A stretch of 64,000 bases of DNA from Vermamoeba vermiformis. Its lineage: Eukaryota. Made by a program: the position numbers and the translations under genes. Shown here one piece after another: positions 24,654 to 63,808 of this stretch. Positions within the stretch are counted from its first letter, which is position 1, and each line of letters begins with the position of its first letter. The notes under the pieces are model-generated. The model was not told where the DNA came from. It worked only from the letters and a program-made list of their open reading frames with translations, and did not search any database. The stretch spans positions 62,001-126,000 of the forward strand of contig JBEWZL010000136.1 in the NCBI GenBank assembly GCA_045837725.1. Direction: 5' to 3'.

Positions 24654-25046
24654 TGCGTTGAAACGTCAACGGAAAATGATTTTTCGGCTTTAAATCTTTT
24701 CCAATCACATATACCAGGGCTTTATAATCTTGATGGCGTAATGTATGTTATTGAGGCGAATATTGGGTCATTTTATGAATTGATACGATCGGAGGTAAGC
24801 GGTCAAAAGTAAAGTTTTGGATGCAGTTTGGAAAGTTGACGCCTTAGCGTGTATGATACGTATTAAAGCATATTATGACTCATATGAAGATTATAATACA
24901 TTATTTATGAAGTACGTACACACACCTCTTCGTGTAACAGCGCGGAGTTGAACTTTCTTTGGAACTTTTCTTATTTACAGAGTCATCGTACTCTACAATA
25001 TCAAAATTAATACAAAACCACAAATAGGACATACGTGATTCGATGG

Positions 25047-26102: not shown

Positions 26103-26444
26103 AATGTTATTGATGTCAAGCTCATATGTACATAAAGTTAAAAATATGAATAAAAGTTGCGCAGCAAGTAACCATCAAATTATCACGTGCGATGTTTATT
26201 AATAGGACGTTTGCATAATTCTACAAGACTGAGCTAATAGTGTCGGCGTCATGCGCCAGTCTGATGAAAAGATCAACAAGTAGTCTGCGCAATGTTCTAC
26301 TTTCTGCCTGGGAAGGTGATCGCAGGTTGTGGATCTGTTGGTGGCTTGCCACAGAACGCTACGGCTAATTGTTACGCTTGATCCATATTTTCAGATTCAG
26401 CTGAATAACAATGCCCAGGATTCTATCAGATGCCGCGTACCGAT

Positions 26445-29066: not shown

Positions 29067-29307
29067 TGAAAATTTAATATGACCAGTGGTCTTCTTCTAT
29101 TGAATTAAATTTGTAAACACAAACGAAAACTGCACGCAGTGCGCACAAGATTTTTTTAGTTTGTATACCGGTGTATACTTTTCCTAATTTAGAGTTCATT
29201 TCAATTTCGTTTCTTTTCAGTGTTATATTACAGTTATTTACATAAGGCAGCTTTGACCTCATCAGGAGCTAGTTTCGCAAGAAGCAATGTTTCGGGATGG
29301 CATCCGC

Positions 29308-31840: not shown

Positions 31841-32029
31841 ATCATCTGTCACGCTCACTTTACAAGTTTATAAACAGTACTGATTTTTCCTTTTTAGGAA
31901 GATTCAGTTTGTAACGCTGGCCGATTTCAAACTTACAACCAATTGCGTTACATCACACCCTGGGTTAAATGTTACAGCTAACTTATTCAAATGGAGCGTT
32001 GCGGAGAAATTCAATCGCCATCGGAAAAG

Positions 32030-32145
32030 TTGCGTTCGAGATCTGCGGGCCAGATACATATTTTATTGCTTAATATTGTATCCGCATTAGGGAGTCTAAT
32101 AGCATCCTCTATGCCTTCTGCTTTTTCGCTGTTCGTTGGAGAAAG
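32030..32145. repeat. Diverged direct repeat, copy of 34281-34393 (3' end of the ankyrin gene)
   Basis: Shares gttcgagatctg...ttattgcttaat...taatagcatcctctatgccttc..tttcgctgttcgttggagaaa with 34281-34393. Confidence 0.8.
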
Positions 32146-32174
32146 CGATGTAGCCAGGCAATTTAAAGCGTTGT

Positions 32175-39748: not shown

Positions 39749-42700
39749 TTACATATTGCAGTTGAACTGCCGGTCATACATTACATTTAACCTCGCGATA
39801 ATTACATCTAGCGTCAATCGTTTTTGCGGATCTGGATCCCAGCAACCGGTGATTAATTCGGCGTAATCTGCAGGACAACCAGCAGGAATGACTTCGCGAT
39901 TGCCATCAATAACGAACTTTGTTACGTCCCACACGTGATTGAAGGCGGTGTAGGGCTCTTTCTGTGTGATGATAACCCACAGAAGAATGCCGAAGCTGTA
40001 AATGTCCGCTTCTTTGCTGTACCGTTTCTTTTGCAAAATTTCTGGGGCCATGTAAATTGGAGTGCCAACATTTCTTGTGTACGTTTCCATTTTGTCCTCG
40101 GCAAATCTTCTGGCACTTCCAAAGTCACTTAATCGAATCATGTTTTGTGCATTGACATCCGTTGAGGCAATGAGCACGTTATCTGCTTTAATGTCTCTGT
40201 GCAGCACGTTGTTTTTGTGTAAAAAGTTGATCGCTTCAGCTATCTCTAGCACGATCTTCAATTTTGTAGCGTAAGGGATCTTTTTGGTCATAAGCTTCTC
40301 CAAACTGCCGTTGGGTATAAATTCTGTAACTATAGCGAGTTTTCCAGGCAGTTTTGATGCGCCAATGAGTGATACTATTCCAGGATTCTTCAACTCGGAC
40401 AAAAATTGGATCTCGCGTTCAAACTCTTCCATCGTTTTTGGGTCGACCCATTCTTGAAATTTCAGCATTTTCACAGCCACTATGTTGCCGTTGTAATTGC
40501 CTCTGTAAACAACACCAAATCCTCCCTCGCCAATCGGTGCGGAGTCCAAAACAATGTCATCGATATCTATCCAAACAGACGGATTCGTGACGATGTCACA
40601 TGGAATGTAGAAGTGTCTGCCAATGTCTGGCATCTCCACGCCAATTAAGGCTGTGACATTTGTTGCCACGTTCATTTTGAGCTTGAAGTGAACAGCGTCG
40701 TTGTCAGTAGACGAGTCAATAGTGCTAGGCCTGTTAATACGCCATCTGTAGTCTAGTGTCACGTCTTGAGGGGTAGCTGTCAGTGTGCACTTCGGCGTCT
40801 CTGGCAGATGAAATTTCACGGTGAAATTTCGTTCTTTTTTGGACGCATCTAGCAACGGAATTTCCAAGTCTGTTGCTCTTTTCGAGATTCGTTTCTTGGT
40901 TTGTTGTAATGTCGAAAGTGTTGATATTAATCCACCTTGCCACTTGACTTCAATTGTATCAGTATACTCTTCATTGACGTTGAATTTTTGTTGACCGCCA
41001 AAGGTCAAAGCGTGCTTTGAAAATGTTACTGGCAAGTTCTCGAGTTTTCTGCAGAGTTTGGAATCAGCAGGAGCAGTCCACGGTGGCAGTAGTGTGTATT
41101 TGATGTCTTCAATGCCATACGTAGCCTTGTTGAATGAGATTTGGCGTCGTTGGTTCATTTTTCTTCGAACAAAAATGACGGCCAATATGACTCCGACAAT
41201 AAACGCGCCACCAATAAATAATGCAATCAATATAATTGCTTTGGGCGATAGTCTGACACTTAATTCGACTTCATCGGTCCAAATCGAGTCAACGGGATTG
41301 GTCAGCTGAGCTTGGATTGTGTGTCCGTCCATGTCCATATTTGCTTCGAATGTCAAAGTCCGTCCTGTTTCCTGCACAATCAATTATTGATTAACAAAAA
41401 AAGTACCAAAGATTACTTCATATCGTTGCGACTTACGCCTAAAATCTCTTCGCCGTTTCGATACCACTTGTACGTCAGTCGCTCTTCAGGCGTGGCAAGG
41501 ATCGAAAATGTAATGTTTTTGCCCGCATTTACATCTGCTACTGGCTGGCTGAAATGAATCAATTCGGGTTTTCCCAGGATCGTTAGCGTTGTGACTCGAT
41601 GTTCGGAAGGATTTCCTCCTTGACGCAAACTGACTAATACTTTATATTCACCTTCATGCTCAGTGGACACATTGGCGATGGTATAAGAAGTAGAAGAGGC
41701 GCCTGAGGCCGAAAAAATTAGTCGACGAGTTGCTGGCAAAAAAAAAAGGTTGATTTTTACCTGGAATTCCCCTTGCTCCCAGATACCACGCTAATATTAC
41801 ATCCTCGTCCGTGTGAATCTCGACGGATAAACTAACAGTGTCACCAGGGAATGCTCTGACACCTCCTGCATTCGGAGAGCTGACTGAAATGAGAACAACT
41901 TGGATGCGGAACGGGAAGGGGCCAGCAGTCCCGGCAATGTTGTGCATGTACAAGTGATAATCTCCGCTGTGAATGGTGCTGGCTTTGTCTCGTTCGAATA
42001 GTCCCACTGTCGTGTTCTGAATCCAATTGCCGTTCTGTCTCCATTCGTACAAGATTCCATAGCCTTCAGAAGCGACGTTGATGATGATTTGTGAGCCAAC
42101 AAGAACATCGTACAGCGGTCGCAAAGGTTGTCGCAACTTCGGTAAAGTGACAACCACGAGACGAGTTTCTGTGCTAACGGAACCAGACGGGTTGCTGGCA
42201 ATAAGTTTGACGATGGTGTTGTTGAACGCAGGAGTAAGAACAGGCGTAAACCAAAAGGTTTCTAACGAATTGTAAAGGACGACACTGCCGTTGAGCATCC
42301 ACGTGTAGGTCACTGCCACGCCAGTCACCACTGCGCGGAAATATTGCCTTGTGTTCACGGCGGTAGGTTTGATGTCTTCAAATTTGATGATGAATTGGGG
42401 AGGGCTGTGAATGAGAACCAGGGCGACGTTACTTCGGGCAAAGCCTGACGGATTGTGTACCTCTACATAGGCACTGAAAGCGTCCCGAACGTTTGGCACT
42501 TGAATTGTGGAAACGCCATCTTTTTCGCTTACGTTGAACGGACTATCAATGCTTAATTTCCAGAAAAAAGTCAATGCTCTTCCGGTTGCGTGTATGCTGA
42601 GTTCAGCGGTCTCGTTGGCAAATATTGACTGCGGAGTTGGTATTTGTTTGGTGATAACTGGCGCTGGCTCCATGCTAAGTGTAATACTAACTGAGCTAAC

Positions 42701-44684
42701 AAAGCCATTGATATTGTATGCCTCGCACCGCATCACTAGTCCATTGTCGAGGTCGCTTAGAGGCCACATTCGAAGCCGCGAAGACTCCTGCAACATCAGA
42801 TCTGAGCCGCGGAACCAACGATATTGCACTCCTTGGCCTGTCGCATTAACATATAGTATAGGTTGTGTGTCTGGAAAGTAGAAGAACGGAGATTCGGAGT
42901 AACTGACTATTGTCGGTGCAGGCTCGGGACGAATCCAGATCTCGGGACCAAGAGTGACTCCCGACGGGTTTCGAGCTTCAAGCTGATACATCGTTGACAC
43001 AAGACTCGGGTCTAGTTGTACTTCAAGAGTGCTTTCGTCGAGTCCAACAGTGTCGTTAAATCGGATCCAGCGAAATGACAGTTCTTCACCAACGACTTCC
43101 ATATCAAGCAACAAGGTCTGATTCAATAGCATGTAATACTCCATCATGTCGTAGTTGCCGAAGGACGGTTTTGGCTTGAATTCAATTGGCATTGGACTGG
43201 ACTCGACAAACCCATTCGGATTCGATACTCTTGCTACCACTTGCGTCAAGTTCTCGGAAAATTGTCCAGCTCGAAGTTGCACGACAGTAAGTCCAGTCAA
43301 GTTCTCGTACTTAGTGCCATCGATAATCCATTCGTATTGCAGGCGTTGTCCGAGTGCTGCGACGGAGAAGATGACGTCTTGGCCAGGAAAAACTGGGCCT
43401 GGTACTACTGACGTTGACACTATTTCTGGAATTGGATGTGCTAGAATAACACTAGGCTCCGACCGCAAGGTAAGACCGTCCGTATTGACGCTGACTATGT
43501 ATTGTGTGCCATTATCCGCGAGTCCAAAATCGGTAATATCGATGCCTGAAGAAGTCTCTGCTGGAATAGGGTCGCCGTTTCTGTACCATTGATAGAATAC
43601 CTCGAAATCTCCTTCTGTAGTAAAGCTTAATAGTCGTGCTTCGTCAAAAAAAGTGTAGGACTTACTCAGGACTTGTATGTCGAGACGAATCGAATCACCG
43701 ACAAACAGGAAGCTCTCGCTGGGCGGGTTCTTAACAATTGCAAAGGGCTTGGTGGACAGCATGATGCTTAACTCCGTGCTTTGTCCGCATGCGTCTTCAA
43801 TTTTGATTGAATATTGGCCATAATCTCGCGCTTCAAAATTCGGGAAGTAGAATGAATCTGCTTGCGCGAGAAGCGTGCCTGCTTTGAACCATGAGAATTG
43901 AAGATCCAGCCCAGTAGCGTTAATGCTTAAAGTGAATGGCTGTCCTACTACCGCTAATCCAGGATTAAATTGTTGAACGACAACAGGTGGACAAACACGA
44001 AGAGTAGCAGCGTTGGATGTGATTGATGTCTGACATCCGTCTTCAACTCGAACAGAATACAAGCCACTATGCATTGGTTGTGCTGAAGATATCGTGTAGA
44101 TCGCTTGGTTTGCGTTAGCGATTGGTTGGTTGTCCAGTAGCCATTGAAGCGAGATTTGAGTTCCAGATGCGCCAATCCAAAACTGGACGTCAGTTCCAGC
44201 GACTACGAAAGCACTTTCAGGTTGATTTTCTATTACCAACGGAGAACAAAATGTAAACATTGGTGAATAGGCAACAGCGCGTCTGCATCTGGTAGGTAGG
44301 CCGCTGGCAGAATTGAGCTGTAGTCTTATTCGACCAGACGAGGCCAGCGACGTTGTTATCCATTGAAATGACGATTCTCCAAAAGCGCCTGACCCCAGTC
44401 TAATGCACCCTTCGGTTTGAGTGCCTGGACAGAATTGGATTTCGACTATGTTCGGGGAGCAGACCGGAAACATCGTCCAGCGCCATTGAATATTTATTGG
44501 CTGTCCCACTGTTATTGATCCACCATTCGGACTAGTAACAAAGTCCGCTATTTCAAGGATCTGGCCTATTAAATAATTAAAATAAATAAATTTAATAATT
44601 ATGATTCTATTGTTTCTTACATTCGCCAGCACCAAATAATAATATCACCGCATACAAAAATATGCAAGAATATTTGGCTTCCAT
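39749..44684 (-). CDS. Receptor kinase: signal peptide, ~10 Ig-like repeats, TM, juxtamembrane domain, TKL kinase; paralog A
   Basis: Signal exon MEAKYSCIFLYAVILLFGAGE; Ig I-set-like repeats (LQWLLDNQPI...SGLYSVRV); TM AIILIALFIGGAFIVGVILAVIFV-RRK; GEGGFG, VAVK, HRDIKADN, DFG, GTPIYMAPE, CW...P.KR. Confidence 0.9.
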
Positions 44685-44857
44685 TGAGGACTTCTGCACG
44701 CAAAGAACATTCTAACTGAAGAATAAATCTTGGTGACGAGTTGACAGCGGAGAAACACCGCATTGAATATCGCCATGAAACTTCCCAAGTTCCGCGAGTA
44801 TCGATCTGTCTTCATTTAAGCGTGCTTGAGACATTGTTTGAGAGAACCAAAAAAAGG

Positions 44858-47800
44858 TCAATTTATTACGAACTGCTGTTTCAGCATTTTGTCTAATTTT
44901 TCAATGACTACAGGTAGTGGTGTTCGTTTTTCAGGCTCGTGTGTCCAGCAGCCAGTAATCAACTCAGCGTAGTCTGCAGGACAACCAGCGGGAATGACTT
45001 CACGTTGGCCGGCCGCTACAAAGTTTTCCATCTCCAATTTGCTATTGAAGGCAGCGTAGGGTTGTTGTTGCGTAATAATGACCCACAGCAAGATACCAAA
45101 GCTGTAAATGTCCGCTTCTTTGCTATAGTTCTTTTTTATCGTTACTTCTGGGGCCATGTAGATTGGCGTGCCAACGTTTCTGGTAAACTGTTCCATTTCT
45201 TCCTCGCCAAATCTTCTTGCACAACCAAAATCGCTCAAGCGAATCATGTTTGACGAGTTCACATCGAGAGATTCCACGAGCACGTTATCAGCTTTGATGT
45301 CGCGATGAAGCACGTTGTTTTGGTGAAGAAAATGAATCGCTTTTGCCACCTCCAACGCGATCTGCAATTTCGTCGCGTAAGGTAATTTCTTCGCCATCCA
45401 TCTTTCCAAACTTCCATTTGCAAGATACTCTGTAACTATAGCGAGTTTTCCAGGCAGTTTTGATGCACCAATGAGTGACACTATTCCAGGATTCTTCAAC
45501 TCGGACAAAAATTGTATCTCTTTCTCAAAACCTTTCATCTTTTTTGGTTCAAGGTCTTGACATTTCAGCATCTTCACAGCCACTATATTGCCGTTGTAAT
45601 TGCCTCTGTAAACAACACCAAATCCTCCCTCGCCAATCGGTGCTGAGTCCAAAACGATATCATCAACATCGATCCAAATAGAAGGATTTGCGACGATGTC
45701 ACAAGGAATGTAGAAGTGCTTGCCTATCTCAGGCATTTCTACGCCGATCAAGGCAGTCGCATTTGTTGACACGTTGAGTTCCAGCTTGAATTGGACTGTG
45801 TCATCGGCAGTGGCATTTGAATCGTAAACGCTTGGTCGGCTTGCTCTCCAACGGTGGTCTAGGACAACTTCATCAGGATGAGCAGTGAGCTGAAGTTTTT
45901 GCGTCCGTGGTGGATGGAATATTATTGGAAAGTTGCCGCCTTTCTTCGAGGCATCCATCAGTGGGATGTTCAGATCTGTTGTCTTTGACAGTGTTTTTTT
46001 GCTCTGATGCAACGTTGATATTGCTAACTTGAATCCGCCTTGCCACTTCACTTCAATTGTGTCCGTATATTCCTGATTGACGTTGAATTTCGTTTCTCCT
46101 CCGAACGTCAACCGGGTCTTTGAAAAAGTGACAGGGAGGAGGTCAAGTTTGGTGGCTAGCTTCGATTCTACAGGCGCTTTCCAAGTCGGTAACAATCGGT
46201 ACTTGAAATCGTCAATGCCGTATGTAGCCTTGTTGTACGTGATTTGACGTCGTTGATTAATTTTTCTTCGTACGAAAATGATAGTGAGAATGACGCCAGC
46301 AATGAGAGCACCGCCAACAAACACAACAATCATAGATATCGTTGCATCTGATATGCGAACACGTAATTTAACTGGCTCACTCGTAAGCGAGTCTGCTGGG
46401 TTCGTTAGCTCAACGCTGATTAGATCTCCATTCATGGCATAGCTGGCTTCAAACGTCAAAACTCTGCCCGTTTCCTATTCAATGATTAATTGCTGCACTT
46501 TTATGTTTTTCAATTACAACTTACTGCTTCAATTGGCTCACCATTACGTAGCCATTGATAAGTTATTCGATCATTTGGAGTAGCCGTCGCGGACAAGGTG
46601 ACGATGTTTCCTGATTGGACGTCGTACACTGGTTGATTATAAATGGGTTGTTGAAGAACTGGGCCTCCAAGAATTGCGACTGTAGTTACTGATCGCTTCA
46701 CGTACGAGCCTCGGTTTCTGTTATGACCGATGTAGATCTCATAGTGTCCACTATTGGCATTAGAGACATTGGCTAGTGTCAGAGACGTGTCGTGTGCTCC
46801 TAGTGAAGTGAACGCATGAGTTAATGCACGCTAGTAAACAATTTGTTTCCGGTTACCTTCAATCTCCTCGTTTTCGCGGTACCACTGGATTTCTAAGACG
46901 TCATACCTCTTCGTTGAAAGCGTGACACTGAGAGTGAGAGCTTCTCCTTCAAACACGTTGCTGTTGGTACCGTTGAGCGATTGAACTTGGAGTTGAACAA
47001 CGACAACACGGAACTCGTAGGGTCCCGTCGAGCCAGCGAGGTTGTGCATATAAAGCTGATACTTTCCGCTCATTCTAAAACCCACTTCTGAAATTTCCAA
47101 AGGACCAGTGTTGTTCGTTAAGAAAGTGCCGTTGTGTCTCCATTCGTACGTCACACCAAAGTCGTTCGAGTCCACATTGACTATCAAACTTGTAGTCACC
47201 AATACTTCGTAAACTTTTTGTAAAGGTGTTTGTAATGTCGGTTTGGTAACAACTATTATCATTAATTGATCTGAAACAGAACCAGATGGATTGCTAGCTG
47301 TCACCTTCACGTATGTACCGTTGTACTGCAATCCAACTCTGGTCACTTGAAAAGTAGCTGCGGCATCAGCCAAGACTACACTATCATTGACGCTCCATGT
47401 GTAGGTCACTCCAGTGCCAAGTGCATTAGCCTGTAATAGTAATGTACTGTTGACGGGGATGGGGAAGATCGTGGGAAATCGTCTAACAAAATCTGGGGGG
47501 GGATGAATAAGTACGAAGGCAGTGTTGCTCACAACAGAACCTGAGGGATTTTGCACACGAACAATCGCGTTAAATCTCGTGACAACATTTGGCACTTCGA
47601 TAGTTGAGCGATCAGCTGTTTTCGGCACGAAGTTGAGTGCTGGCTGCAATATCCATGTGTATGTTAAGTTGTTGCCCAGTGCTTGAATGCTCAGCTCAGC
47701 GGACCGGTTCATAAAGACTGATATTGGTGTTGGCATCTGTTGCACGATTACGGGAGCAGGTTCCAGCTTCAAGGTGAAATTCACTGAGCTTGAAAAGCCA

Positions 47801-49789
47801 TTGACATTGTATGCTTCGCCACGTATAACTAGTCCGTTGTCTTGCCCGCTCAAGGGCCACAACATGAGCTCAGGCGAGTCTTTGAAATACTGAAACTCGG
47901 AGCCACGGAACCATCTATATTGCACTCCTTGGCCAGTCGCATTGATGTATAACACGGGCGACTGGTCAACGAAGTAGAAGAGGGGCGATTCTGAGTGGCC
48001 CGTGATCTCGGGCGCTGGTTCAGGATGAACCCACATTACAGGACCAACTGTCGAGCCTGTTGGGTTGATGGCCTCTAATTGGTAACTCGTTGATACTATA
48101 GCGGGGTCCAACTGCACTTCTAACGTGGTTTCATTGCGTTGAATGATCGTGTTATTGTTTTTGATCCACCGGAAAGACAGGTCTTCGCCCACCACAAGAT
48201 TCGTCAAGTCCAACGTGATGGTCTGATTTAGCAGCGCAAAATACTCGAAAGGATTATCCGCAAGGAATTCTGGTGGTGGCTTGATAATAAGCTTCATTGG
48301 CTCGGAGTCCACAAACCCATTAGGATTAGAGACTCGGACAATTATTTCCGCAGAGCTGGTGAGGTCTGTTGCTGTTACTTGCATAGATGTAAGTCCAGTT
48401 GCTCGCTCTTCCAAAACTCCATTAATGAGCCATTCGTATTGCAAGCTCTCGCCGATAGCAACGACCGAGAAAGTCACATTTTGCATTGGCCACACTGATG
48501 CTGGATCTACCGAGAGCGACGATATAACAGGCGAAGGATAGGCTAGAATAGTACTAACATCTGATGTGATAGTATGGCCGTTTGCACTGACGCTAACGAC
48601 GTAGTGTGTGTCATTGTCGGCGAAACTAAAATCCGTTAAGTTGTAGCTTGGCGTGTTTGCTCCTCTGATGGGAATGCCTTCTCTACACCATTGATAATTG
48701 ACGTCGAAGTTCCCTTCTGAGTTAAATAGATTAGAACGGAAAGTACTGAAAACTTGTCTTACTTAACACTCGAACATCCAGCTGGATCGAGTCACCAAGA
48801 AACAGAAAAACTTCGCTTGGCGGGTTTGCAATTATAGCAAATGGCGAACTATACAGCACTATTTGTAGCTCCGTATGTTGTTCGCATGCAGCCTCAATTC
48901 TTACGGAATATTCGCCGTAATCTGCGGGCTGAAAGTTTGCAAAGTTTAAAGAATTGGCTCGGGAGATTATTCTTCCTTCTTTGCTCCAAATGAATTGAAG
49001 ATCAGGCCCAGTGGCGTCTACCTGCAAGGTAAATGGCCTTCCAACTTCCGCTTGCAAAATAGGACTGAATTGACGAATTACAAGGGGCGGACAAACCCTG
49101 AGCGTAGCAGCGTTGGATGTGACACTTGCTTGACAGGCATCGTGAAGGCGAACGGAATATTGGCCACCATTGACAAGCTGAACAGATGGTATCGTATATG
49201 TGGGCTGCCTAGCACCAGCTATCGGTTGGCCGTTAAACAGCCATTGATAGGAGAGCTGAGATCCAGATGCGCCGACCAAAAATTGAACTGGATGGCCAAT
49301 CAAAGATTGTGCATTATTAGGGTGCTGACCAATTAACAAGGGTAGACAACGTAGATTAAAGACGGGAGAAAAGGGTCCTGATGAGAAGAAAGGAGTACGG
49401 CACTTGGTACCTAAAAGAGCAATGGGCTTTTTGTATTGAAGGCTAAAACGTCCATCTCCAATTCTATCTACATTCCATTGAAACTCCGTGACCGCCGTTG
49501 AAAGACCAGCAGCAATTATTGAGCATCCTTGTGTTTGTGTGCCGGGACAAAACTGGATTTGATAACCAGCGCAAACAGGAAATGCCCATCGCCATCTCAA
49601 TTGAATAGATTGCCCAAGGGTAACTATTCCGCCGTTAGGGGTAACAGTAAGTTCCTGACCTATTCAAATAAATATTGGTATCAACAACAAAAAGAAACGG
49701 GCTTTTATTTGCTTACCAATTGACTCGCCAAAGTAAATTGGCAACAATAATATTAATATGCCAAAGTATTTTGCTTTTGCGGTCTTCAT
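44858..49789 (-). CDS. Ig-repeat receptor TKL kinase, paralog B
   Basis: Signal exon MKTAKAKYFGILILLLPIYFGES; same exon structure and domain order as paralog A; intact kinase motifs. Confidence 0.9.
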
Positions 49790-49968
49790 TGCATTATCAA
49801 AACTAAAGAATAAATCTTGGTGATGTGAGTGACGAGTGACAGCGGCAAAATCCCGACCCAGGCTGAAATTTCTTTGTATTGCTTCCGTTGCGTTCTAATT
49901 ATAAGCGAGTGCTAAAATGTCGAATGGAACAAGTTCGAGCCCACTTATGCACTTTTTGTCGGAGTTAA

Positions 49969-52225
49969 CTACTTGACTACGTGGTGCTCGAGACATTGTT
50001 TGAGAGTGTCGATAGAGCACGGTTTCATCAAGAAGTCATCCATTCCTGCTTTCAGTGCCATTGTTCTCTTCTCTTCCACTGCGTGTGCTGTCAGCGCTAC
50101 TATCGGCGTTGCCACGCCCATTTCACGAAGCTCTGCTGCTGCCTCAATGCCATCTACAAGGTTAAAATAAGTATTATAGTCATCGCATTGCCTTCTGTAC
50201 CTTTGACAGGCATCTCCAAGTCCAATAAGATGATGTCATACTTTGGTCGAGGTGTCAACTTCATCTTCTCAACTGCGATCTGACCATTCGATGCCACGTC
50301 AACGTCACAGCCAAGCTTTTGCAATTGCCCCCTATATAACATATGTTACTCACTATGTTTATCTTTTTAGTAACGTTGGCTTACTTGATGACGACTTGGT
50401 TGATTGGATTGTCTTCCACAAGTAGAATGCTCTGCGACCCATCACCAATAGTAACAAACAACGATTCGGCATTTTCACTTGGTGTTACTACAACTGTGGT
50501 GCCGCCATCGTCGTCGATTGGAATCCAGAAAGTGAAGTGACTTCCTTTGTCTTGTCCATCACTATAAACTGAGGTGAGCACGTGTCTTATACCAAAACGG
50601 GCACGTACCTTCGAACGCTGATTGCACCTTGCATGAGCTTTGCCAACAGCAAGCATATGTTCAATCCAAGCCCTGTGCCACCAACGACTTGACCGTTCTT
50701 CTTCAACGATGCTTGTTCGAATGCTGAGAAGATTGACTCGAAGTCTTGAGTGTTGATGCCAACGCCTGTGTCCGTCACTGAAAATCGAACGAACTGCCCT
50801 GCACTCGACCAGTCTTTGGTCATTGTGTTTGGTGCATTCAATGCGTTGGTGATCCCGTCTCTCGTGTCAACATCAACGCGAAGTGAGATCGATCCTTCGT
50901 TCGTGAACTTGACTGCATTCGAAAGCAAGTTGACGAGTATTTGTTTGATCTTCACTTTGTCATTCTTGATTGACTTGGGAACGAGAGGAGATACCTCTGC
51001 CGTGAAGTTAAGTAATTTCTTTTGGCTCAATAGAGGAGAAACAACTCGTGCCGCCTCTTCAACGAGCTCTCTCAGTTTGATCTTTTCGGTAATTAGCTTC
51101 ATCTTTCCTGCTTCGATCTAAGCAATGGTTAATGAGCAGGTGCCAAGTTACACGTGTCTCGTTATTACGTATCAAGTCACATACCTTTGAGAAGTCGAGA
51201 ATGTCATTGATCACTTGCAAAAGGTTGGTCGAGCACGACCTGGCGATGTTAATCAACTTGACGTATTCATCAGTCAATGGCGCGAACTTGAGAATGTCGA
51301 TTGCTCCGATGATGCCTGATAACGGCGTTCTGAAGAAGTCAGTGACACGTGCCATTGACATGAAGATGAAGCGGAATAATCCGCTGCAAGGAATTTACAC
51401 TTACCTTAGCTCGTGGCTCATTCTGCATACAAACTCGTTCTTCAACTTATCCGCTTTTTCAAGCCGATGCAATGCCTCGCTGAATTTCAGTAAGTTGAAG
51501 ATCATAAACATTCCCTCCGTTATTAATCGATTTATGTAAGCCTGCCTAAACAATCAAAATTATTGCAATGTTTGCGGTTAATAATTCCAAGCAACCTACC
51601 AGAGAGGATAGAGATCGCGATCGGGTGCCAATTTTTGTTGATTGAGCATGAAAACGTATCCCATTATTAAATTGCTTATCATGCCAACTACCACGCCTTC
51701 TACACCTAAAATTCTTGCATTAACGAAAAAACGTGTGATCGGAGTAAGGCCGTACCTAAGGCGAGACCATCAACAATCAAATACGCTGAGCTTTGCATTA
51801 CAAATACATCAAATCCACTTTCAGATGGTGTATTTAAATACGCAAATATCCCTATAATGGTAAAACACGTGAACGCTGCTTTTCGTTCGGAATCCGTAAC
51901 GCAAAATAGGTATATTATAAGCGCACTGACAAAAGGTGCTGCTAATGAACTCGCTCGGTAAGGTCCACCCATTGTATAAGTAAAACCTGAATTTTTAAAA
52001 AAATAATTAAAACTTGAAATTGTTATTAAGCTTCAATGATAGCCCTTGTTTACCTGATAATATCAAAATAAATTGCAATATTCCAAATAAAAAGAAGCGA
52101 TAAAAGGCTCGTATAAATAAATCAGCTTTGGCAATGCTAGATCCGCCAACCCGTTTCGGTCTCCAAACATTGGTCGTGATCCATGACACAACGAAGTCTT
52201 CTTGATCCCGAAACCAGTTGCTCAT
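49969..52225 (-). CDS. Multi-TM hybrid histidine kinase, paralog 3
   Basis: WRPKRVGGSSIAKAD; FCVTDSERKA; FVCRMSHELR/TPLSGIIG; NLLSNAVKFT; GGTGLG; LLVEDN; LLDLEMPVK; MKPCS. Confidence 0.88.
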
Positions 52226-52501
52226 CGTAGCATTGAAATTAAAAATAACACAATTTCACGTTTGATTAATTTTGTGGATTTACTTTCTGCCAAAAAAGGC
52301 GTTGAAATCGAATATCAGCAACTTTCTTTAAACAACATTATCTTAAATGTTACGACGAAATGTTGCAACGACATAAAAGTGCTACCTTCAGTAGCAACGT
52401 GGCTTCTTCGGCGCTTTCGGAGCTATTTTTGTGACCAATAAAACTTTTCGTGAATGGATGCTGGCCGTCGACGCAACTCCGAAGCCTTTCATAAAAAGAG
52501 A

Positions 52502-54800
52502 TTAAACATTGGAATTTGTTCTAACCAACGGTAATTTCTTCGGTTGTCGCAAGCCATCCAAGCACTGTTTGAGAGTATCGATTGAACACGGTTTCATCAA
52601 GAAGTCATCCATTCCTGCTTTCAGTGCCATTGTTCTCTTCTCTTCCACTGCGTGTGCTGTCAGTGCTACTATCGGCGTCTTCACACCCAGTTCACGCAGT
52701 TCGGCAGCTGTAGTAACACCGTCTACCCAAGAAATTAATTCCAGTTAGTGTATTGTTGGTACGATGTACCTTTAACGGGCATTTCCAAATCCAACAAGAT
52801 CAAGTCATAGTGCGGACGCGGTGTCAAACTCATCTTCTGAACCGCGATCTGGCCATTCGATGCCACGTCTACTTCACAGCCTAATTTAACTAATTGACCC
52901 CTAAAGTTCGATTATTAGTCTTAGTATCTTTCTATATTAACAAACTAAGTATCACTCACTTAATGACCAGCTGGTTGACTGGATTGTCTTCAACGAGCAG
53001 AACGACCTTGCCAGAGGTGCCAGCGACTCGAGGAGAATCACTACTTGGGCTTAATGCAACAGCTGATAGAGCAAGCTCGTCGTCGTATGGAATCCAAAAA
53101 GTAAACTGGCTCCCTCTCTCTGGTCCGTCACTACAACGCGTGTCAAAAGCGCACGTTACATAGTTCGTTGATCACGTACCTTTTAACGCTGATAGCACCT
53201 TTCATCAACTCAATGAGCAACAGACAAATATTCAGCCCGAGGCCTGTGCCACCAAGGACTTGACCGTTCTTCTTCAACGATGCTTGTTCGAATGCTGAGA
53301 AGATTGACTCGAAGTCTTGAGTGTTGATGCCAACGCCTGTGTCGGCCACCGAAAAACGAACGAACTTTGTTCCAATCGTTCTGTCTTTGGTCAGCGTGTT
53401 GGGAGCAGTGAGTGATCTGCTGATCCCGTCTCTCGTGTCAACATCAACGCGAAGTGATATTGACCCTTCGTTCGTGAACTTGACTGCATTTGAAAGCAAG
53501 TTGACGAGTATTTGTTTGATCTTCACTTTGTCATTCTTGATTGATTTGGGAACGAGAGGAGATACCTCGGTTGTGAATGTGATCGACTTCTTTTGGTTCA
53601 ATAGAGGTGATATCACTTGTGCAGCCTCTTCAACGAGCTCTCTCAGTTTGATCTTCTCGGTCATCAGCTTCATCTTGCCTGCTTCGATCTAAGCAACGAG
53701 TTAGCGATCAGGTACCAAGTTCCGCGTGTCATGCGATGACGTCATCATGTCACATACCTTTGAGAAGTCAAGAATGTCATTGATCACTTGTAATAGATTC
53801 GTGGAGCATGTCTTGGCAATGTTGATGAGTTTGACGTATTCATCAGTCAGTGGTGCGAACTTGAGAATGTCGATTGCTCCGATGATGCCTGATAACGGCG
53901 TTCTGTAGAAGCAGGTCAATGAATAGTAACGCGTCGCTACTTCTTATCGTTATTCGTACCTGAGCTCGTGGCTCATTCTGCACAAGAATTCAGTTTTGTG
54001 CTTGTCCGCCTGCTCGAAGCGAGTGAACGTTTCAGAGAACTTGGCAATATTTATCACCATAAACATTCCCTCGGAAAATACACGGCTGGCAAAAGCTTCC
54101 CTATGAATAAGCAAACATAAATCCCTTATTGAACGAAAAAATTGTTCCGCTTACCATTCGTGTGCGAGATCTCTTTCCGGCATTAACTTTTGTTGATTAC
54201 GCATAAATATATAGCCCATAAAGAAATTGCATAGCATCGCAATCAAAACGCCTTCGAAGCCTATTAAAGAAACCACACGGTAAATTTCGTTTCAAAAAAA
54301 CTTCTGTCACGTACCTAAAGCAAGCCCATTTATGATGATAAACGCTGAACTTTGCATAACAAACACGTCAAATCCTTGTTCCGATGGAGTGGTAAAATAA
54401 ATTGCAAGGCCAATCACTAGGAACGCCGTGTACGATGCCTTTCGTTCCGAATCTGTCACACAAAATATGTATATCGTCAAGGCACTGACAAATGGCGCTG
54501 CTAATGATCCCGCACGATAAGGTCCTTGCTCGGTGTAATATAGACCTAGAAATTGACATTAACAATTTTTGAAATTGTAATAAATTATTAAATTAATTCG
54601 TGCCTATTATAATTCATTGAAATGATACCTGATGCTACGAAAATAAACTGTGGTATTGCAATAACAAATAATCTAAAAAATGCTCGAATAAACAGATCAG
54701 CCTTGGCAATGCTCGATCCGCCAACCCGCTTCGGCCGCCACATATGAGTGGTGATCCATGATATAGCGTAATCTTCTCGGTGGCGGTACCAGTTGGTCAT
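52502..54800 (-). CDS. Multi-TM hybrid histidine kinase, paralog 4
   Basis: Same motifs and exon layout; closest to paralog 3. Confidence 0.88.
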
Positions 54801-55432
54801 GATGTTGCCAACAGGTTTATTTAAAATAAATCACGCGCTTCTGAGAAGCATCTAACACAACGCAACAAACACAAACTGGCACGCTTTATTGTAATAACGG
54901 ATATCACTCAATGATTCTAGAATTCAAACCTTTTGCGAATCATTTGCCGTAGTTGCGATTAAAGGTAACCGATCAATAATTAATGCTAAAAATAAGCTAG
55001 CTTTTATTCATTAAGTCTATTATATGAAGCATTATTTTACAATTATTTACAAGTCTCCTAGGAGTCAGATTAGAAAAAATTATTTTAAAATCTGCTAGTC
55101 CGATCCGAAAATAGGCCCGAAAAGAATAGATTCTCAAACACCTTATTTGGTCCACCCAAAGGTTCTTGCTAAGATGCAATTGAAGCTATTGGCTAGTTGA
55201 TCTTACGGCAGTTCGGATTTCAAAAACACAAGTAAGACTTTCTTCGAGGCGAAGGTAGGATTTTTTGTCGATAAAGCACGTGAAATACAAGCTAGCAGCA
55301 CATGATTGGCCAAGCCTTTTTGACATCTGTCAGCAATTCTTCTTCTCCTTTTATTACGCGTTTCATTCAAAAAACGAAACCCAATAATTGATTTCACGTT
55401 TTGGCTTGATTCATTTTCATTCGAACGAAAAG

Positions 55433-58400
55433 ATGGCAACAAGGGCTCGGTTTCTACTAACGCTGTTCTTTAGCGTATTTTTTGTTGCATCCGTTTACAG
55501 CGTTCCCCAACTCCGTTTCTTGAACGCTCAATTCTACAACAACACAATTGGCTTTACTACCAGCCTAACAAATACAACTGGAACATTTGCTTTAACGGGT
55601 GATTTCCCAGCACTCTACTATCGTGGCATTGCTCACACTGTTTACTTGCCACTTCCATCTTCTGTTTACGGCTACCTCAACACCCCGCAAACGTATTATG
55701 CTTATAATACAAATGATGATTACTGGCCACACAACCCATTGGCGAATTTGACGGTTACTCTGACCAACAACCAAAGCTACAGTCTCATCTACGTTGCTCA
55801 AACGGATACTGAAAGGAGAGACAATGTTACTGGCAACTATGCGCTTACTACGAACTTCCCTACTCCGCAATTGTTCTTGTTCGAGGAAATTCCTACTTAT
55901 CTTGGTACTTTTGTCAAGATCGTGAACGTTGCTGGTAAGCACATCCGCCAAAGAAATTAGTTTCTTCTTATCCTTACGGAAGCATGAGAGTCACCTTGGA
56001 TTATTATGGCGACTACGATGTTCCTTTTGGAGGCTCAACCGACTTCATCGAAGTGAATTCAAACGAATATTTGTCCTTTGTGGCTCATTTCCCAGGCTTT
56101 AACAGTAAGAAAAATCTACAGAGAAGTGATTAATATTGATACTAACGCATAAATCAAACAGAAACCGCTCAAATTTGGGTTTACAACTTCACATCTAATG
56201 TGATCTACATTCGTGGTGATATTGGTAGTCCGTTTGACTTCAGCTTTGACACCACATCGATCAACTTGGAACAACTCCAGCAACAACCTGCCAATCCTCC
56301 AGTAGTATCTGTTCCTCCAGTTGATGTTCCAGCGTGGACCTGCAAGATCAGATTCATCAATGGCCTTAACAGCGATTATTATTATACTTTAACAATCTCC
56401 AATCAAAGTGCAGTTGTACATTCAATTTCAACCAAATACATTAGCGAATATGAATACTTCTTCGGCAGCGCTGGTTATTACACCGTAGAAGTTCAAGATC
56501 CGTACGAGAATAGTACTTTCGGCGTGGATGTCTTTCTGGAGAATTCCCAGAGTTATACCCTAATTAGTAACAGCTATTACGGTATAATCTTAGTTCAAGA
56601 CTTTCCGAATATCTACAGCCAGGATTTAAGCTACGTGCAAGTGGTTTACAACGGTAACTATTTCGAGTAAAGCATTCATTATGGTCGTATATTAACGACC
56701 ATATCTTAGTGGATCATATTGCCTTCATCGATTTGTTCACGGATAGGTGGGGCTGGCAAAAACCGTACGTGCACAACGGCGACTACTCTCCTTTTTCCTT
56801 CTCTCCGGACAGTTATGGAGGCTTGGCTAGCATTTCTGTGTATTCCGACAATTTTACAGGTATTACTGCGCAGCTCTCATACTTCGATGCATCTAACATC
56901 GACTAATAGTAAGCAATAACTTCTTCATGCCTAACGGAACTGCCACGACCATTTATATCCTGGGTTCAACTCCGAACGTTGGTTTTTACATTGACACGAA
57001 GCAATTGCCTGTGCCGATGGGTCCTCTTTGTACCAACGGCGTTCTTGAAAGCAACGGAGTTTGCAATTGCTTTTCAGGGTAGGTGGAAAACCGTTGCGTA
57101 GAAATGTACTTACTAATTTATTTGTAGGTTTTACTCCGACAACTCGTCGCCGTACAAGTGCAACGTGCCTAGTCCATCTTATTGTACTTTAAGGAATCAA
57201 AGTGACGCTCTGAGCAATGACTTTGTCCCGTACATGAATTGGTGGGCTACCGCGCAAGTCAACGGCAATCAATTGTTCGTCAGCATTTTATCCGAGCTCG
57301 TAAAGAATCGCCGCACCCTGATCGAGCTCCCGAACCCCCAATGCAACTTCCTGAATAGTCCCCAATACTATCAAATGACGTCCCAGAACTGCCAAGATCG
57401 TTTTGATATTCAATTTCCATTCGTTGAGTGTGGCTTTACGAAAGTATCAACACCTTACGAAGACTTCTACAAAGGCACTGTGCACGTGAAACAGATCGAT
57501 CAAGTGACAGTTGGAGGCATGACAACAGAACGAGTGATTGACACACCATTCCCAATCTCCATCAGAATGCCAAAACAACTCGCTGTAAGTCTAAACATTC
57601 CAACTGCCACTCTCTAACGTTGTTGTATCAGGTTGAATCATATGTGCAAGTGTTCGGTCCTCCGAGTCTTGCCATCGACGCAGCATTCGTTGGTCAAACA
57701 GTGAGCACTGAGACTCAGTCAGGCGATCTTCAATACGTCTCTGGAGTGCAATATCCTCTTCAAATCGAAGCAGTACAGCTCGTTGACTTGCCTTACGGAG
57801 TCTACGCGTGGGTCGAGCTTGTGAATGTCAACTGCACCGACTTCGGTCCTTGCGTTCAACGTCTTGAAGTGCACATCAACACAACGAGCTGTCAGATCTC
57901 AGGCACTTATCGCATGGTGGTGTCACTGAGCTGTCGAAGCGATCAAGGATGTCCTGATGAAGCAAAGAACGGTACTCAAGCATTCATCGAGTCACGCATT
58001 GTGTCACAAAGCTTGTGCAGTGAAGTTGGTGTGGACATTGATCTCAATGGGTACATTCAAGCGTACACCGATGCCACCTTCTCTTCGCCAGCATTGGCAT
58101 TCTATCCAGGACAGTAAGTAGTGAACGAAGAAAGCCTAATGAGGTGCAGTACTAACATCGATGTAGGTCTGCGTACTTCATGATCAACGCGTACTCATCA
58201 CGTGTCAGCTTGTCAAAAGTGACACTCGAATCAGTGTACTACTACGGACCAAACATCAACTTCCAGTACTTGTTCTTCAACGGCAATCAGACAGACATTG
58301 CCATGTCAAGCAACTTTGTGAGTGGATCGATGGGAAGCTCACAAGCATGGTTCGGTCTTGACGTGAGCGTGAGCACTCCTCAGTCGGGCGACAACACGCT

Positions 58401-58779
58401 GTTCAAGCTGTATCAAGGTCAAAACGGCGTGTACAACTTTGTTGCGGTTGTTGATGTCGAGTGGTTCGTTGCAAACTCATCGTCAAGTGTCACTCCGGTT
58501 GGACCTCCAGTGGAACCATCCAATCAACCCACTGACCCAGGAGCACCATTCACGTTCAAGAAGAGAATGGCACTGCAAGGCTCTGTGTCGAATCAAGGCT
58601 CACAGTTCACAGCACAAGTGCAAATTGCAGGTCCCACTCCATCGTCACAACAACCTCCTCAACAACAGCAACAACAAACGCCCGTTGTGGCTTCCAAACC
58701 TGACGATAAGCCTGTCTCTTCTGGTGTTTCGTTGATTGCTTCGTGGTTAGTTTTCTTCGTTATGTTCGTAACTCTTTAA
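55433..58779 (+). CDS. Secreted/GPI-anchored surface glycoprotein: two N-terminal beta domains, EGF-like, ZP-module-like region, KKR site, hydrophobic tail
   Basis: Signal peptide MATRARFLLTLFFSVFFVASVYS; two related repeats (LRFLNA / IRFING); EGF-like CTNGVLESNGVCNCFSG; C..C..FPFVECGF...YKGTV; YTDATFSSP...PGQ; FKKR; SSGVSLIASWLVFFVMFVTL. Confidence 0.75.
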
Positions 58780-58973
58780 CGAGCTAAGATTGTCAGTCCC
58801 AAATAAATTTACAATCTTTTGTGGACACGTAGTCAACCTGTTCAATTTTTGTTGAATTTTAATACCATTGTTAAACGCGAATAAATTGCAACCAATTTAC
58901 CGCTCGCGATTGAGACGTGCAGTTGCTGAATGTGGATCACACTGTGTTTGCACCTGCGTCATTTATTGACATT

Positions 58974-60968
58974 TTAGAAGAGCAGGGCTGAAGCAAGAGC
59001 CATTACAACCATCCATGACACTATAACTGAGACACTGGACGAGACAGGATCAGATACGGGTGGCGTTTGTTGTTGAACGGAAGGCGTGGGACCAGCGATC
59101 TGAACTTTCGCAGCGAATTGGGAGCCTTGATTGGCCGTCGAGCCTTGAAGCACCATTCTCTTTTTGAAAGGTGTTGGCACGTTGTACTGCTCCACGGGTG
59201 CTTCCGTTGGAATGCTCGGGTCGGTGGGAGGACCAATAAGATTTGACCCATTATTGGCAACGGAATATTCAACGTAGACCACTGCAACAAAGTTGTACAC
59301 GCCGTTTTGACCCGGGTTCAACTTGAACAGCGTGTTTTGATTCTCATAAGTCGTGCTGACAGCGACGTCAACACTGAACCACGCTTGCGAATTGCCTCGT
59401 GAGCCCAGCGTGAAGTTGTTCGCCACCGCAATGCCAGTAGGTTGTTGATAGTAGTACAAGTAATTCCAGCCAACGTTAGGTCCGTCGTAGGTCACGTAAT
59501 CGAACGTCACTTTTGACAAGTTGACACGTGACGAGTACGCGTTGATCAAGAAGTACGCAGTCCTATGTATTCATTAGTAAGTACTTGGCGCAAATATTTT
59601 GAGGCGAAGAAGGCAAGACTTACTGTCCAGGATAGAACGCGAGGGCAGGCTGGGTGAAATTAGCATCACTGTACATTTGAATGTAGCCGTTCAGATCGAT
59701 GTTGACGGCGACTTCAGGGCACACTCTTTGCGCGACAATGCGTGACTCGATGAACGCTTGAGTGTGGTTCTTGGCTTCTTCAGGACAGCCCAAATCACTT
59801 CGACATCCAACGGACAGCAACATGCGATAAGTGCCCGAGAAGTAGCAGTTTGTGGTGTTGAAATGGACCTCGACACGTTGAATGCAAGGACCGCCCTCAG
59901 TGCAGTTGACGTTCAGTAGCTCGACCCATGCATTGACACCATAAGGCAAGCCAACGAGCTCTACGGCCTCAATTTGCAAGGGATATTGCACGACAGACAT
60001 GTATTGAAGGTTTCCTGAACGAGTTTCAGCGCTCACTTCTTGACCGACGAATGCTGCATCGATGGCAAACGATGGAGGGCCGCTAAGTTGAATGAAGTTT
60101 GGACCTAATGAAAACAGCGTCAATTAGTTGATCACGTGACTTACTTCATCGCGTGTGCTTACCCAAAGTTGCTTGCTCATCCGGATCCACATCGGGAAAG
60201 GCGTGTTAATCACTCGTTCAGTGGTGATACCTCCAACAGTGATCAAGTCAATTTGCTTCACGTTGACAGTGCCCGTGTAGATGTCCTCGTACGGTGATGA
60301 AGAGGTCCTTGTGAAGCCGCACTCGAGGTACGGGAAAGTCATCTCAAAGCGGTCAACGCAGCCGTCATTGACGGTCTTAAAGTACTCTGGGCGCGAGAGG
60401 GAGTTGCACTGCGAGTTTGGTAGCTCGATCAGAGTGCGGCGATTGACGACAAGGTTCGAGTAAAACGTCCAAGACAACTGTTCGCCGTAGAGATCTGCGT
60501 AGCCCCACCAAGGCACCCAGTCGTTGCTGACAGAGTCCGTTTGGTTAAGCCAAGTACAGTAATACGGAGCACGATCAGTGCAAAACTGACTCGAGTTATC
60601 ATTGGCATTGAAGTAACTGGAGAATTCAAAAAGTTAACCCACATCCGGCAATAATATATGGAGTATTGAACTTACCCTGAGTAACAATTGCACATGCCAT
60701 TACTTTCAACATATCCATTGACGCACGTTGGTTCATCCGAGGTCGGGGTCGGATCAGGAATGTAGAAAGCTATAGGTTCTGCAACGTACGGAGTTGCATA
60801 AGGTTGTTGGACAGTATCGTACGGAGCTGCATCCGGTTGTTGGGCAGTATCGTACGGAGCTGCATCCGGTTGTTGGGCTGTATCGTACGGTGCTGCATCC
60901 GGTTGGGCAGTAACAGCAATAACGCTAATTATGATGCACACGAGCAGTGCCAATATTTTGTGCTGCAT
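58974..60968 (-). CDS. Paralogous surface glycoprotein (repeat stalk, EGF-like, ZP-module-like, KKR, GPI/TM tail)
   Basis: Signal MQHKILALLVCIIISVIAVTA; QPDAAPYDTAQ repeats; CVNGYVESNGMCNCYSG; exons colinear with 57165-58779; tail-to-tail with the + strand paralog. Confidence 0.75.
60786..60910 (-). repeat. Coding 33-nt tandem repeat (QPDAAPYDTAQ) x3 plus a degenerate fourth unit
   Basis: gtatcgtacgg(a/t)gctgcatccggttg recurs with 33-nt period. Confidence 0.9.
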
Positions 60969-61441
60969 TGTGTAGCTTCGGTTGAAATTATACTGAATTA
61001 ATTGCCATTGGCTGAAAGTGATTTATAGGCAGGACGAGAAGAATTGGTGACAGGTGTCACTGACCAATATTTCGACCAATCACATGAATATAAACTTGTG
61101 AATATTCGCGTGCTTGTTGTCGGCCATCTCCCAAAGATTCAATCGATTTCATTTTCGGAGCTGATCCGATTCGTTCAGTCGTTTGTGGGTATACTTGTAC
61201 GAATATATTCCATTGCAATTTTGAAGCTACTTGCTACTTCACAAACTGAATCAGAAATTGCGAATTGGGAGGCACGTGCCAACCAAATCCAACCTTCGGA
61301 TCAGATCTGAAGATAAACCAGTCAGTTGATAAGTACGTTTTGATATATCTATAACTTCATGAACCTACGGATATTGTTTTTCGAGCAAACGGGTCCGTTG
61401 AATTCACTGAATTCGGTGCTTAATCAAGCCATTGAGTGGAT

Positions 61442-63808
61442 CTACTTGCTGGAGTACTTATCCAAGCACAGTTTGAGAGTATCAATAGAACACGGTTTCA
61501 TCAAGAAGTCATCCATTCCTGCTTTCAGTGCCATTGTTCTCTTCTCTTCCACTGCATGTGCTGTCAGTGCAATGATTGGTGTTGTCACGCCCATTTCACG
61601 AAGTTCTGCAACTGTCTCTATGCCGTCTACAATATTGTGTTAACAATCATTAATGTCAAGCTGTCTAGCATACCTTTGACAGGCATCTCCAAGTCTAGCA
61701 AGATGATGTCATACTTGGGTCGAGATGTCAACTTCATCTTCTGAACGGCAATCTGACCATTCGATGCCACGTCAACTTGACAGCCCAATTTCATTAATTG
61801 ACCCCTAATATGATCGTTAATAATAATTTAGCAGCGTTATTAATTTGAAATGGGGCTTACTTGATGACCAGCTGGTTGACCTCATTATCTTCGACAAGAA
61901 ATACACGCAGCGATTGCATTGAGCCAGATATACTTTCTTGCACGTGTTTGTCCTCTTCAAAAGAATCTTTTAATGTGCCGTTGCAATCGCTATTTTTCAA
62001 TGGCAGCCAAAAAGTGAATTTGCTTCCTTGATCCGACCCGGCACTTTTGAACCGAGTTAGTACGATCACGAAATAATAGGGAATGGTGATATATATACCT
62101 TTTAATACTGATAGCGCCTTCCATAAGTTTGACAATCAAGACGCAAATGTTCAAACCAAGTCCCGTGCCCCCGACCAAAATATCTTTTTTCTTGTTTGAC
62201 GCTTGTTCGAAGGCTGAAAATATCGTTTTGAAATCTTTCGCGTTAACTCCAACACCAGTGTCTTTCACTGAAAACTGAAGATATTTCTCGTCCCCTGATG
62301 ACTTGGCCCAATTGATCATCATCGTGTTGGACTTTGCACCGGCAGTTTTGATCTTGTGTTGGTTCGATAATTTCACGGTGAGCGTGATATTTCCTTGCGA
62401 TGTAAATTTCACGGCATTTGAAAGTAAATTGACGAGTATTTGTTTCACTTTTGTTTTGTCGCCGAAGAACATATCGGGAAGATAGCCTTTCAGTCTCGAC
62501 TCGAATTTGATCAGTTTCTTTTGGTTCAATAGCGGTGATATCACTTCTGATGCTTCATTCACTAATGCCTCAATTTTTATGCAGCTTTCTTCGAGCTTCA
62601 TTTTGCCGGCCTCAATCTAAAGTCCAATCGTTAGGATAGAGATTATACGTAGAGTTTATATGAGGTACCTTTGAAAAGTCGAGAATGTCATTGATAAGCT
62701 GCAATAGATTCGTGGAGCATGTCTTGGCAATGTTGATGAGTTTGACGTATTCATCAGTCAGTGGTGCGAACTTGAGAATGTCGATTGCTCCAATGATGCC
62801 CGATAACGGCGTTCTATAAATAGAAAAGATTCAGCGAACCAAATATAGAATTGATAAAACTAATGTCCGTTCGTAATTATGCAATGCCAAGTGTGAATCT
62901 ATCCAAATTAGCTAATTTAGGGAATATTGTTCTATTAGGGTGGTTTAGCATCCGCGGCAAATCTAAAATTAGTATTATAAAATAGTACCTTAATTCATGG
63001 CTCATGCGCGCTAAGAAATCAGTCTTGTGCTTGTCCGCTTGTTCAAACCTTGCGAAGATCTCGTGTAATTTTCTGATGGCTATCAACATCAATAAGCCCT
63101 CCGTTATTGTGCGGGATAAATATGGTACGCTATAGTTTCGAGGAATAATTAAATATGGAAGGTAAATCCTTTCACGTACAGTAACACCGACAGATCCCGT
63201 CCACTTGTTTCATAAATTCGTTGCTGATAATTCGTTAAATAGCCGACTATTAAGTTGCCTATAGTACTAAGCAAAACACCTTCGGATCCTATTAGACAAA
63301 CGGTTAGATCTGTTTTTAGGACGCGAAATCTTACCCATCGTAACTCCATTTAGCATTACATAGGTTCCGCTATGCATCACCATCATGTCAAACGATACTT
63401 CTTTTTTAGTGCCCATATAAATTAAGAAGTACATTGTTAATAGGGACGTGTAACCAGCTTTTCGTTCCGAATCCGTTCGGCAAAATATGTATGTACAAAT
63501 AATCCGGATAATTGGAGCTGTAAATGCCAACATTCGAAACCGAGTTGGGACATTGTAAATTAGCCCTAAAAAATAATTTAGAAATAATAAAATTAATTTT
63601 TGGTCATTTTACCTGCTGAGGAGACTATTGAGAGCATGAATGAAACCAAAAATATTCTAAAATAAGCTCTAATAATTAAATCTGCCTTTGCTTTGCTCGA
63701 TCCATCGGTTCTTCTAGGGCGCCAAAATTTGGTCGTGATCCACGAGATTATTCGCTCTTCTATTCGCCAATAAATCTCGCTAGGATGAAAAACATCTTCA
63801 CGGGTCAT
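61442..63808 (-). CDS. Multi-TM hybrid histidine kinase, paralog 5
   Basis: WRPRRTDGSSKAKAD; YIFCRTDSERKA; FLARMSHELR/TPLSGIIG; NLLSNAVKFT; GGTGLG; LVEDN; LLDLEMPVK; MKPCS; ends DKYSSK*. Confidence 0.88.

Follow-up and report, generated by a model that had tools for sequence, protein, structure and literature searches.

A protist surface-protein family whose C-terminal, three-domain module may be remotely related to the zona pellucida module

A 64,000-nucleotide stretch of Vermamoeba vermiformis DNA (contig JBEWZL010000136.1, positions 62,001 to 126,000; hereafter the window) carries two convergent, intron-bearing paralogs, named A and B, which share the same C-terminal module. They are members of a genuine but undescribed family of protist surface proteins, which counts several hundred clusters. 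Judged from its sequence, the module, made up of three domains termed N, M and C, is most likely a three-domain variant of the zona pellucida (ZP) module. The explanation favoured here, with moderate confidence, is that of a remote ZP relative forming polymers by cleavage-triggered strand exchange. Common ancestry with ZP, taken separately, is considered likely, and cleavage-triggered polymerisation, argued from analogy, is a serious possibility that falls just short of probable. N would be the counterpart of ZP-N, retaining only the C2-C3-type cysteine pair, and C that of ZP-C devoid of cysteines, while the six-cysteine domain M would have been inserted in the interdomain linker.

In gene A (forward strand), the module is preceded by a four-cysteine EGF-like domain at 57029..57161 (Cys 460, 471, 473 and 487), which is interrupted by the intron 57079-57127. 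Domain N, ZP-N-like, spans 57207..57572 with cysteines at 57342, 57390 and 57429, and is followed by a linker strand at 57573..57673, across the intron 57585-57631, which is the candidate donor strand. Domain M, with six cysteines and no known family, occupies 57674..58018, and domain C, in the ZP-C-like position and free of cysteines, 58022..58464, with the intron 58114-58166 inside it. Then come the dibasic site KKR (58558..58566), an amphipathic strand ending in VQIAGP (58606..58635), which falls in conserved columns and is a candidate external hydrophobic patch (EHP), and a hydrophobic C-terminus resembling a glycosylphosphatidylinositol (GPI) signal by hydropathy (58702..58776). The same parts are found on the reverse strand in gene B: N at 60181..60537 (start approximate), M at 59719..60063, C at 59265..59718 (interrupted by the intron 59623-59563), KKR at 59157..59165, the strand ending in VQIAGP at 59088..59117 and the GPI-signal-like C-terminus at 58977..59050. 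In both paralogs, C begins at the GYIQ motif and closes at GVYNFVAVV. Family hidden Markov models (HMMs) for the three domains were built from homologs and then scored on the A and B exons. The E-values obtained for A (N 1.4e-16, M 2.2e-18, C 2e-11) place its three domains in the family beyond chance; for B, they are 6.7e-11 (N) and 6.8e-17 (M), and its C is likewise delimited with the family model. A previous sequence-only reading of this DNA had listed an EGF-like, an N-like, a Cys-rich and a C-like segment, KKR, VQIAGP and a hydrophobic tail, and all of them are present, in that order, in both paralogs. Its reservations about missing cysteines and an additional domain were borne out as well, N having three cysteines, C none, and a six-cysteine domain lying in between. 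As for the EGF-like domain that it announced, it is indeed there, but with four cysteines and no Pfam EGF match in the window's exons.

At the family level, a search with an M+C profile among 1.84 billion representatives returned 703 clusters at E ≤ 0.001, and the best 150 of these 703 were considered. An independent N profile matches 75 of a set of 151 collected proteins. All three domains occur in 91 of 161 collected proteins, invariably in the order N, M, C, and M (about 120 amino acids) stands between N and C in every one of the 91. The six cysteines of M are invariant (36/36), N has three cysteines in 56 of 62 cases and C has none in 91 of 122. The module takes the C-terminal position in the family and the heads are exchangeable: a Pfam scan of the homologs revealed EGF repeats, OAA lectin, PA14, Big_9, Ig-like, SdrD_B and TSP3 heads, the EGF-like region of the homologs matching EGF_2/EGF_Teneurin. 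Within the V. vermiformis genome, 21 matches to the middle exon are spread over many contigs; some of these are near-identical copies or stem from duplicate contigs. No match came out of a word search with the M exon, and low-sensitivity DNA scans of contigs from metagenomes, viruses and prokaryotes, made with two peptide patterns, brought up no relative. The idea that M repeats N or C found no support (hhalign E 0.18-0.71, not significant); Pfam matches to Toxin_7, a phage tail terminator and kallikrein, which are short and have E > 0.05, were put down to chance.

Several family members depart from the common layout. In the truncated paralogs L009 and L010, N and half of M are absent; both stand directly behind an unrelated open reading frame and are probably gene fragments. 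L011 to L015, situated on different contigs or at contig ends, are five almost identical versions of one short member, and two of them (L013, L014) adjoin actin genes, which suggests a co-duplicated and perhaps highly expressed unit. Whole extra domains are inserted inside C in L016 (2050-3120), L018 (2260-3190) and P0043, the KKR tail being kept in L018 and P0043.

The tail that follows C was studied in the 124 of 131 aligned homologs with at least 45 amino acids in that region, seven being dropped. A KR or RR pair lies no further than 45 amino acids past the last strand of C in 93 of the 124, mostly at 3-9 residues, vs. 22 of 655 background windows and a maximum of 31 over 500 shuffles. After the site, 49% of 92 homologs show an alternating hydrophobic strand; the figure for shuffles is 25% (maximum 39%). 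Judged by hydropathy only, 119 of the 124 end in an anchor, i.e. a GPI-like signal (100) or a transmembrane (TM) segment followed by a tail (19). In A and B, the site reads F-K-K-R and is of the dibasic kexin/PC type, without the P4 Arg of strict furin cleavage (R-X-K/R-R). The V. vermiformis genome encodes subtilases with S8 and the convertase P-domain. At least four P-domain convertase-like genes are clustered on one of its contigs (G000:C38; L025, L027, L028).

In uromodulin, according to the available text of PMC7737619, once the EHP is released, the following subunit can fill its place with the first half of its own ZP-N/ZP-C linker. For the A/B-type proteins, a comparable course can be proposed. 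By its sequence, the precursor is secreted and GPI-anchored, and the post-KKR strand would fold back as the last strand of C, holding this domain inert. A kexin/furin-type convertase, for which both the site and the enzyme class are present, would then cut after KKR, and the freed groove of C might be taken by the look-alike linker strand of a neighbouring molecule. By analogy with uromodulin, head-to-tail filaments or a surface coat would result at the membrane, displaying the variable heads.

Over full-module homologs, the linker strand after N is, by mean BLOSUM score, the best of 336 module positions when compared with the post-KKR strand, which is the likeness that donor-strand exchange would need. 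In A, the linker strand contains VQVFGP and the post-KKR strand VQIAGP. The strand between M and C is the second-best match, and both top matches thus flank M. In homolog P0099, about 290 amino acids are inserted between the linker strand and M, and the strand remains with N. Our reading is that M may have been inserted inside a ZP-type linker, both halves of which would have been left in place. Concerning covariation, the alignment is shallow (about 116 effective sequences) and noisy; domain N shows couplings of an F-G hairpin, and domain C the ladders C-F, A-B and C-C', which weakly fit a generic Ig-type sandwich.

The ZP link was approached with a Pfam scan covering 24,736 families and an ESM Atlas feature search covering 7.7 million clusters. 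Leaving EGF aside, the Pfam family met most often in the homologs is ZP-N (PF23344), with 1/11, 4/54 and 3/36 matches in overlapping sets, or five proteins in total (L007, P0103, P0045, P0006 and P0154), two of which are 84% identical. The L007 match spans positions 30-88 of the 101 of ZP-N. Homolog P0015 shares 30% identity with the N exon of A; its ESM feature search placed a GP2 cluster first at 0.85, with GP2/uromodulin on top; the ten best family matches all fall in one clan, and the top Atlas cluster lists ZP families only and no EGF. An Atlas cluster without Pfam family, consisting mostly of diatoms, scores 0.83 in an ESM feature search and is a lead only. An aromatic residue occupies the F-strand column of N in 68 of 77 sequences (Y 39, F 29), and the ZP-N fold is marked by an E'FG extension and a conserved F-strand Tyr.

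A number of results weigh against this explanation, some of them bearing on polymerisation and others on the ZP link. Concerning polymerisation, the dibasic site is missing from 31 of the 124 homologs. The ladder score for packing of the post-KKR strand remains within controls, and its coupling to strands A, A'' and F, next to which the EHP of uromodulin lies, in a test defined after the pair list was seen, was matched by 1 of 150 permutations with 20 letters and by 40 of 300 with 10 classes, and is not robust. At the profile level, the linker ranks first, third or fourth depending on window length, near ordinary strands, and its within-protein covariation with the post-KKR strand ranks 19th of 336. 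These proteins could be ZP-related by descent without polymerising: the module would serve as a stalk, cleavage at KKR would only shed the ectodomain or leave the strand bound, and the protein would act as a monomeric adhesin or receptor carrier. Endoglin and betaglycan are ZP proteins to which such a non-polymerising stalk can be likened. Besides the homologs lacking a dibasic site, the 19 with a TM segment and cytoplasmic tail fit this alternative, and so does the separation of N from C by domain M, which would alter the filament geometry seen in uromodulin. Yet three quarters of very divergent members have kept the dibasic site immediately behind the final strand of C, and the strand after the site has a look-alike in the linker; we regard the stalk as unlikely.

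As for the ZP link, the best ZP-N E-value is 0.0075 and every match lies under the 24.7-bit cut-off. The ESM score of 0.85 is only a lead by the tool's own scale (< 0.9), a third of shuffled proteins reach 0.8, and P0015 shares 164 features with the matched cluster vs. 170 typical of true members. With A's last (C) exon alone, the Atlas gave no usable match. None of nine exons of the window has a Pfam EGF or ZP match, PF00100 appeared in no Pfam scan (some of which reported top families only), and no sequence link was found between C and ZP-C. Sequence searches of the PDB with single exons and profiles brought up EGF domains or noise and no ZP module, uromodulin appearing once, at E 6.1, through its EGF only. 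The cysteine pattern given above for N and C is unlike that of ZP. Scans of the V. vermiformis genome with PF00100 and PF23344 yielded no candidates, with the positive controls silent too, and are hence uninformative.

These sub-threshold signals, the absence of a PDB or PF00100 link, the cysteine pattern and the fact that C1-set was also weakly matched among the homologs would all suit a tandem of Ig-like sandwiches that has no kinship with ZP and bears a GPI anchor and a shedding site for a convertase; the ZP likeness would then come from convergence of beta-strand patterns and a generic EGF-GPI architecture. Against such convergence, two independent methods pick ZP out of the families and clusters searched, the top Atlas cluster contains ZP families without EGF, and the order of site, strand and anchor comes in addition, together with the likeness of the linker; the probability of convergence is put at a low level. 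The ZP-like interpretation put forward in the sequence-only reading is therefore kept in part: weak ZP-N and ESM signals and the conserved site, strand and anchor speak for it, but all signals are sub-threshold and C lacks a sequence link with ZP-C.

In the available text of PMC13361971, the canonical ZP module has eight invariant cysteines, four in ZP-N and four in ZP-C. The A/B family departs from it by the bipartite layout, the eight cysteines and the Pfam threshold, and because of these three points it is not filed as a canonical ZP member. It agrees with it in the basic site after C and in the signal peptide with GPI or TM anchor (from hydropathy). The family may well work like the canonical module.

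Compared with uromodulin and GP2, as far as these are described in the accessible part of PMC7737619, A and B share the signal peptide, the EGF right before the module, the basic site, the amphipathic strand and the GPI signal. The resemblance of the linker strand to the post-site strand is a candidate further parallel, and GP2/uromodulin are the top ESM feature matches. Unlike them, the A/B family has the six-cysteine domain between N and C, three cysteines instead of four in N and none in C, a KKR site without P4 Arg and no significant sequence match. The extra free ZP-N domains of ZP2, ZP4 and ZPAX (PMC9154058, available text) also give more than two sandwich domains C-terminally, but they precede the ZP-N/ZP-C pair, whereas M stands inside it and does not significantly resemble N (hhalign E 0.18). 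Chaperone-usher pili and AbpX (10.64898/2026.01.04.697558, available text) assemble by strand exchange, which for A and B is only proposed; they are prokaryotic, use an N-terminal donor strand and have neither GPI anchor nor dibasic propeptide.

The available text of the same 2026 review (PMC13361971) regards the canonical module as metazoan and records ZP-like domains from no group other than unicellular holozoans. The ZP-like domains of choanoflagellates are, like the A/B module, non-canonical, with an incomplete cysteine pattern, and outside animals. They are set apart by description, being holozoan and said to be without full bipartite architecture, whereas the A/B family is in an amoebozoan-like host and has both ends, the site and the strand. 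One of the actins of this genome finds its best PDB matches in 4EFH and 1C0F/3A5M/1NLV, which are Acanthamoeba and Dictyostelium actins; from this one gene, the host is likely to be an amoebozoan-like protist. The accessible part of a Dictyostelium genome preprint reports no ZP domains. A literature search, with most subscription papers and all supplements outside its scope, found no description of such a protist family.

The metazoan standing of ZP modules in that review would allow for a module acquired from animals by gene transfer or contamination. However, A and B have short introns of the host type and lie among hybrid histidine kinases and Ig-TKL kinases, the 21 genome matches are spread over many contigs, and no scanned homolog has a ZP family above the cut-off; an animal origin is highly improbable. 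We suggest, tentatively, that a three-domain ZP cut-and-polymerise module, made up of ZP-N, an inserted M and a Cys-free ZP-C with dibasic site, EHP and GPI anchor, predates animals, that it is widespread in protists, where donor-strand exchange would assemble it into cell coats or fibrils, and that the animal module would be a derived, two-domain, disulfide-reinforced branch. If true, a large family with this switch of site, strand and anchor would exist in an amoebozoan-like cell, and egg-coat, tectorial and uromodulin-type matrices would have their roots deep in the eukaryotes; unknown proteins of protist surface coats would gain candidates, and the disulfides of ZP-C would prove dispensable for the switch. 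Should the ZP link not hold, there is still a modular family of surface proteins, unannotated and several hundred clusters strong.

Gene A extends over 55433..58779 (+) and comprises eight exons (55433-55934, 55991-56104, 56162-56653, 56710-56859, 56910-57078, 57128-57584, 57632-58113 and 58167-58779) encoding 992 amino acids in a continuous reading frame, with all introns GT..AG and 47-57 nt long. Three of them (56105-56161, 57585-57631 and 58114-58166) are removed in contigs of run X4, from a related strain; that this run is RNA is a guess. The exon joins within the module are collinear with the full-length homologs P0001/P0004, and the first intron is the least certain boundary. From the raw RNA runs X18 and X20, 22 and 28 reads were aligned, none at ≥ 99%, which is uninformative for A and B. 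The signal peptide lies at 55433..55504 (end approximate; hydrophobic windows over residues 5-25), followed by an N-terminal head at 55505..57028, about 430 amino acids long, beta-rich, with many N-glycosylation sequons and no Pfam match; similar heads are found in homologs P0002/P0004. The span 57165..60660 given in the sequence-only reading contains the module, but cuts both genes, omitting the first 460 residues of A and exon 1 of B.

Gene B (58974..60968, -) has a short head and four exons (60968-60676, 60616-60163, 60104-59624 and 59562-58974), which are 59-73% identical to A per exon, the differences being mostly at third codon positions. Exon 1 (60676..60968) encodes a signal peptide, three 11-amino-acid repeats and the first part of the EGF. 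The three corresponding 33-nt repeats lie at 60790-60900 (-), where length varies in a related contig of run X1. At intron 2 and its junction (60095..60162), the canonical donor 60162 and acceptor 60104 leave the frame off by one base, and the reading frame is lost; it survives the intron solely if a weak GC donor is used, if the intron is 36 nt long or if longer stretches are skipped. The same letters stand here in a DNA contig from run X1, possibly the source of the assembly. Downstream of it, the exons are intact. From these letters, B may be frameshifted, and may represent a recent pseudogene, an oddly spliced gene or the source of a short EGF+N product.

Elsewhere in the window, two tandem receptor-like genes at 39749-48762 (-) combine long ectodomains of Ig/PKD-like repeats with a TM segment and a kinase of the TKL type. 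Hybrid histidine kinases, with membrane sensor, HATPase_c and receiver, are represented by at least five paralogs, located at 25000-33000, 49900-54900 and 61400-63800 (-). Finally, a right-handed beta-helix protein with a GPI-like C-terminus is encoded at 97-1464 (+).

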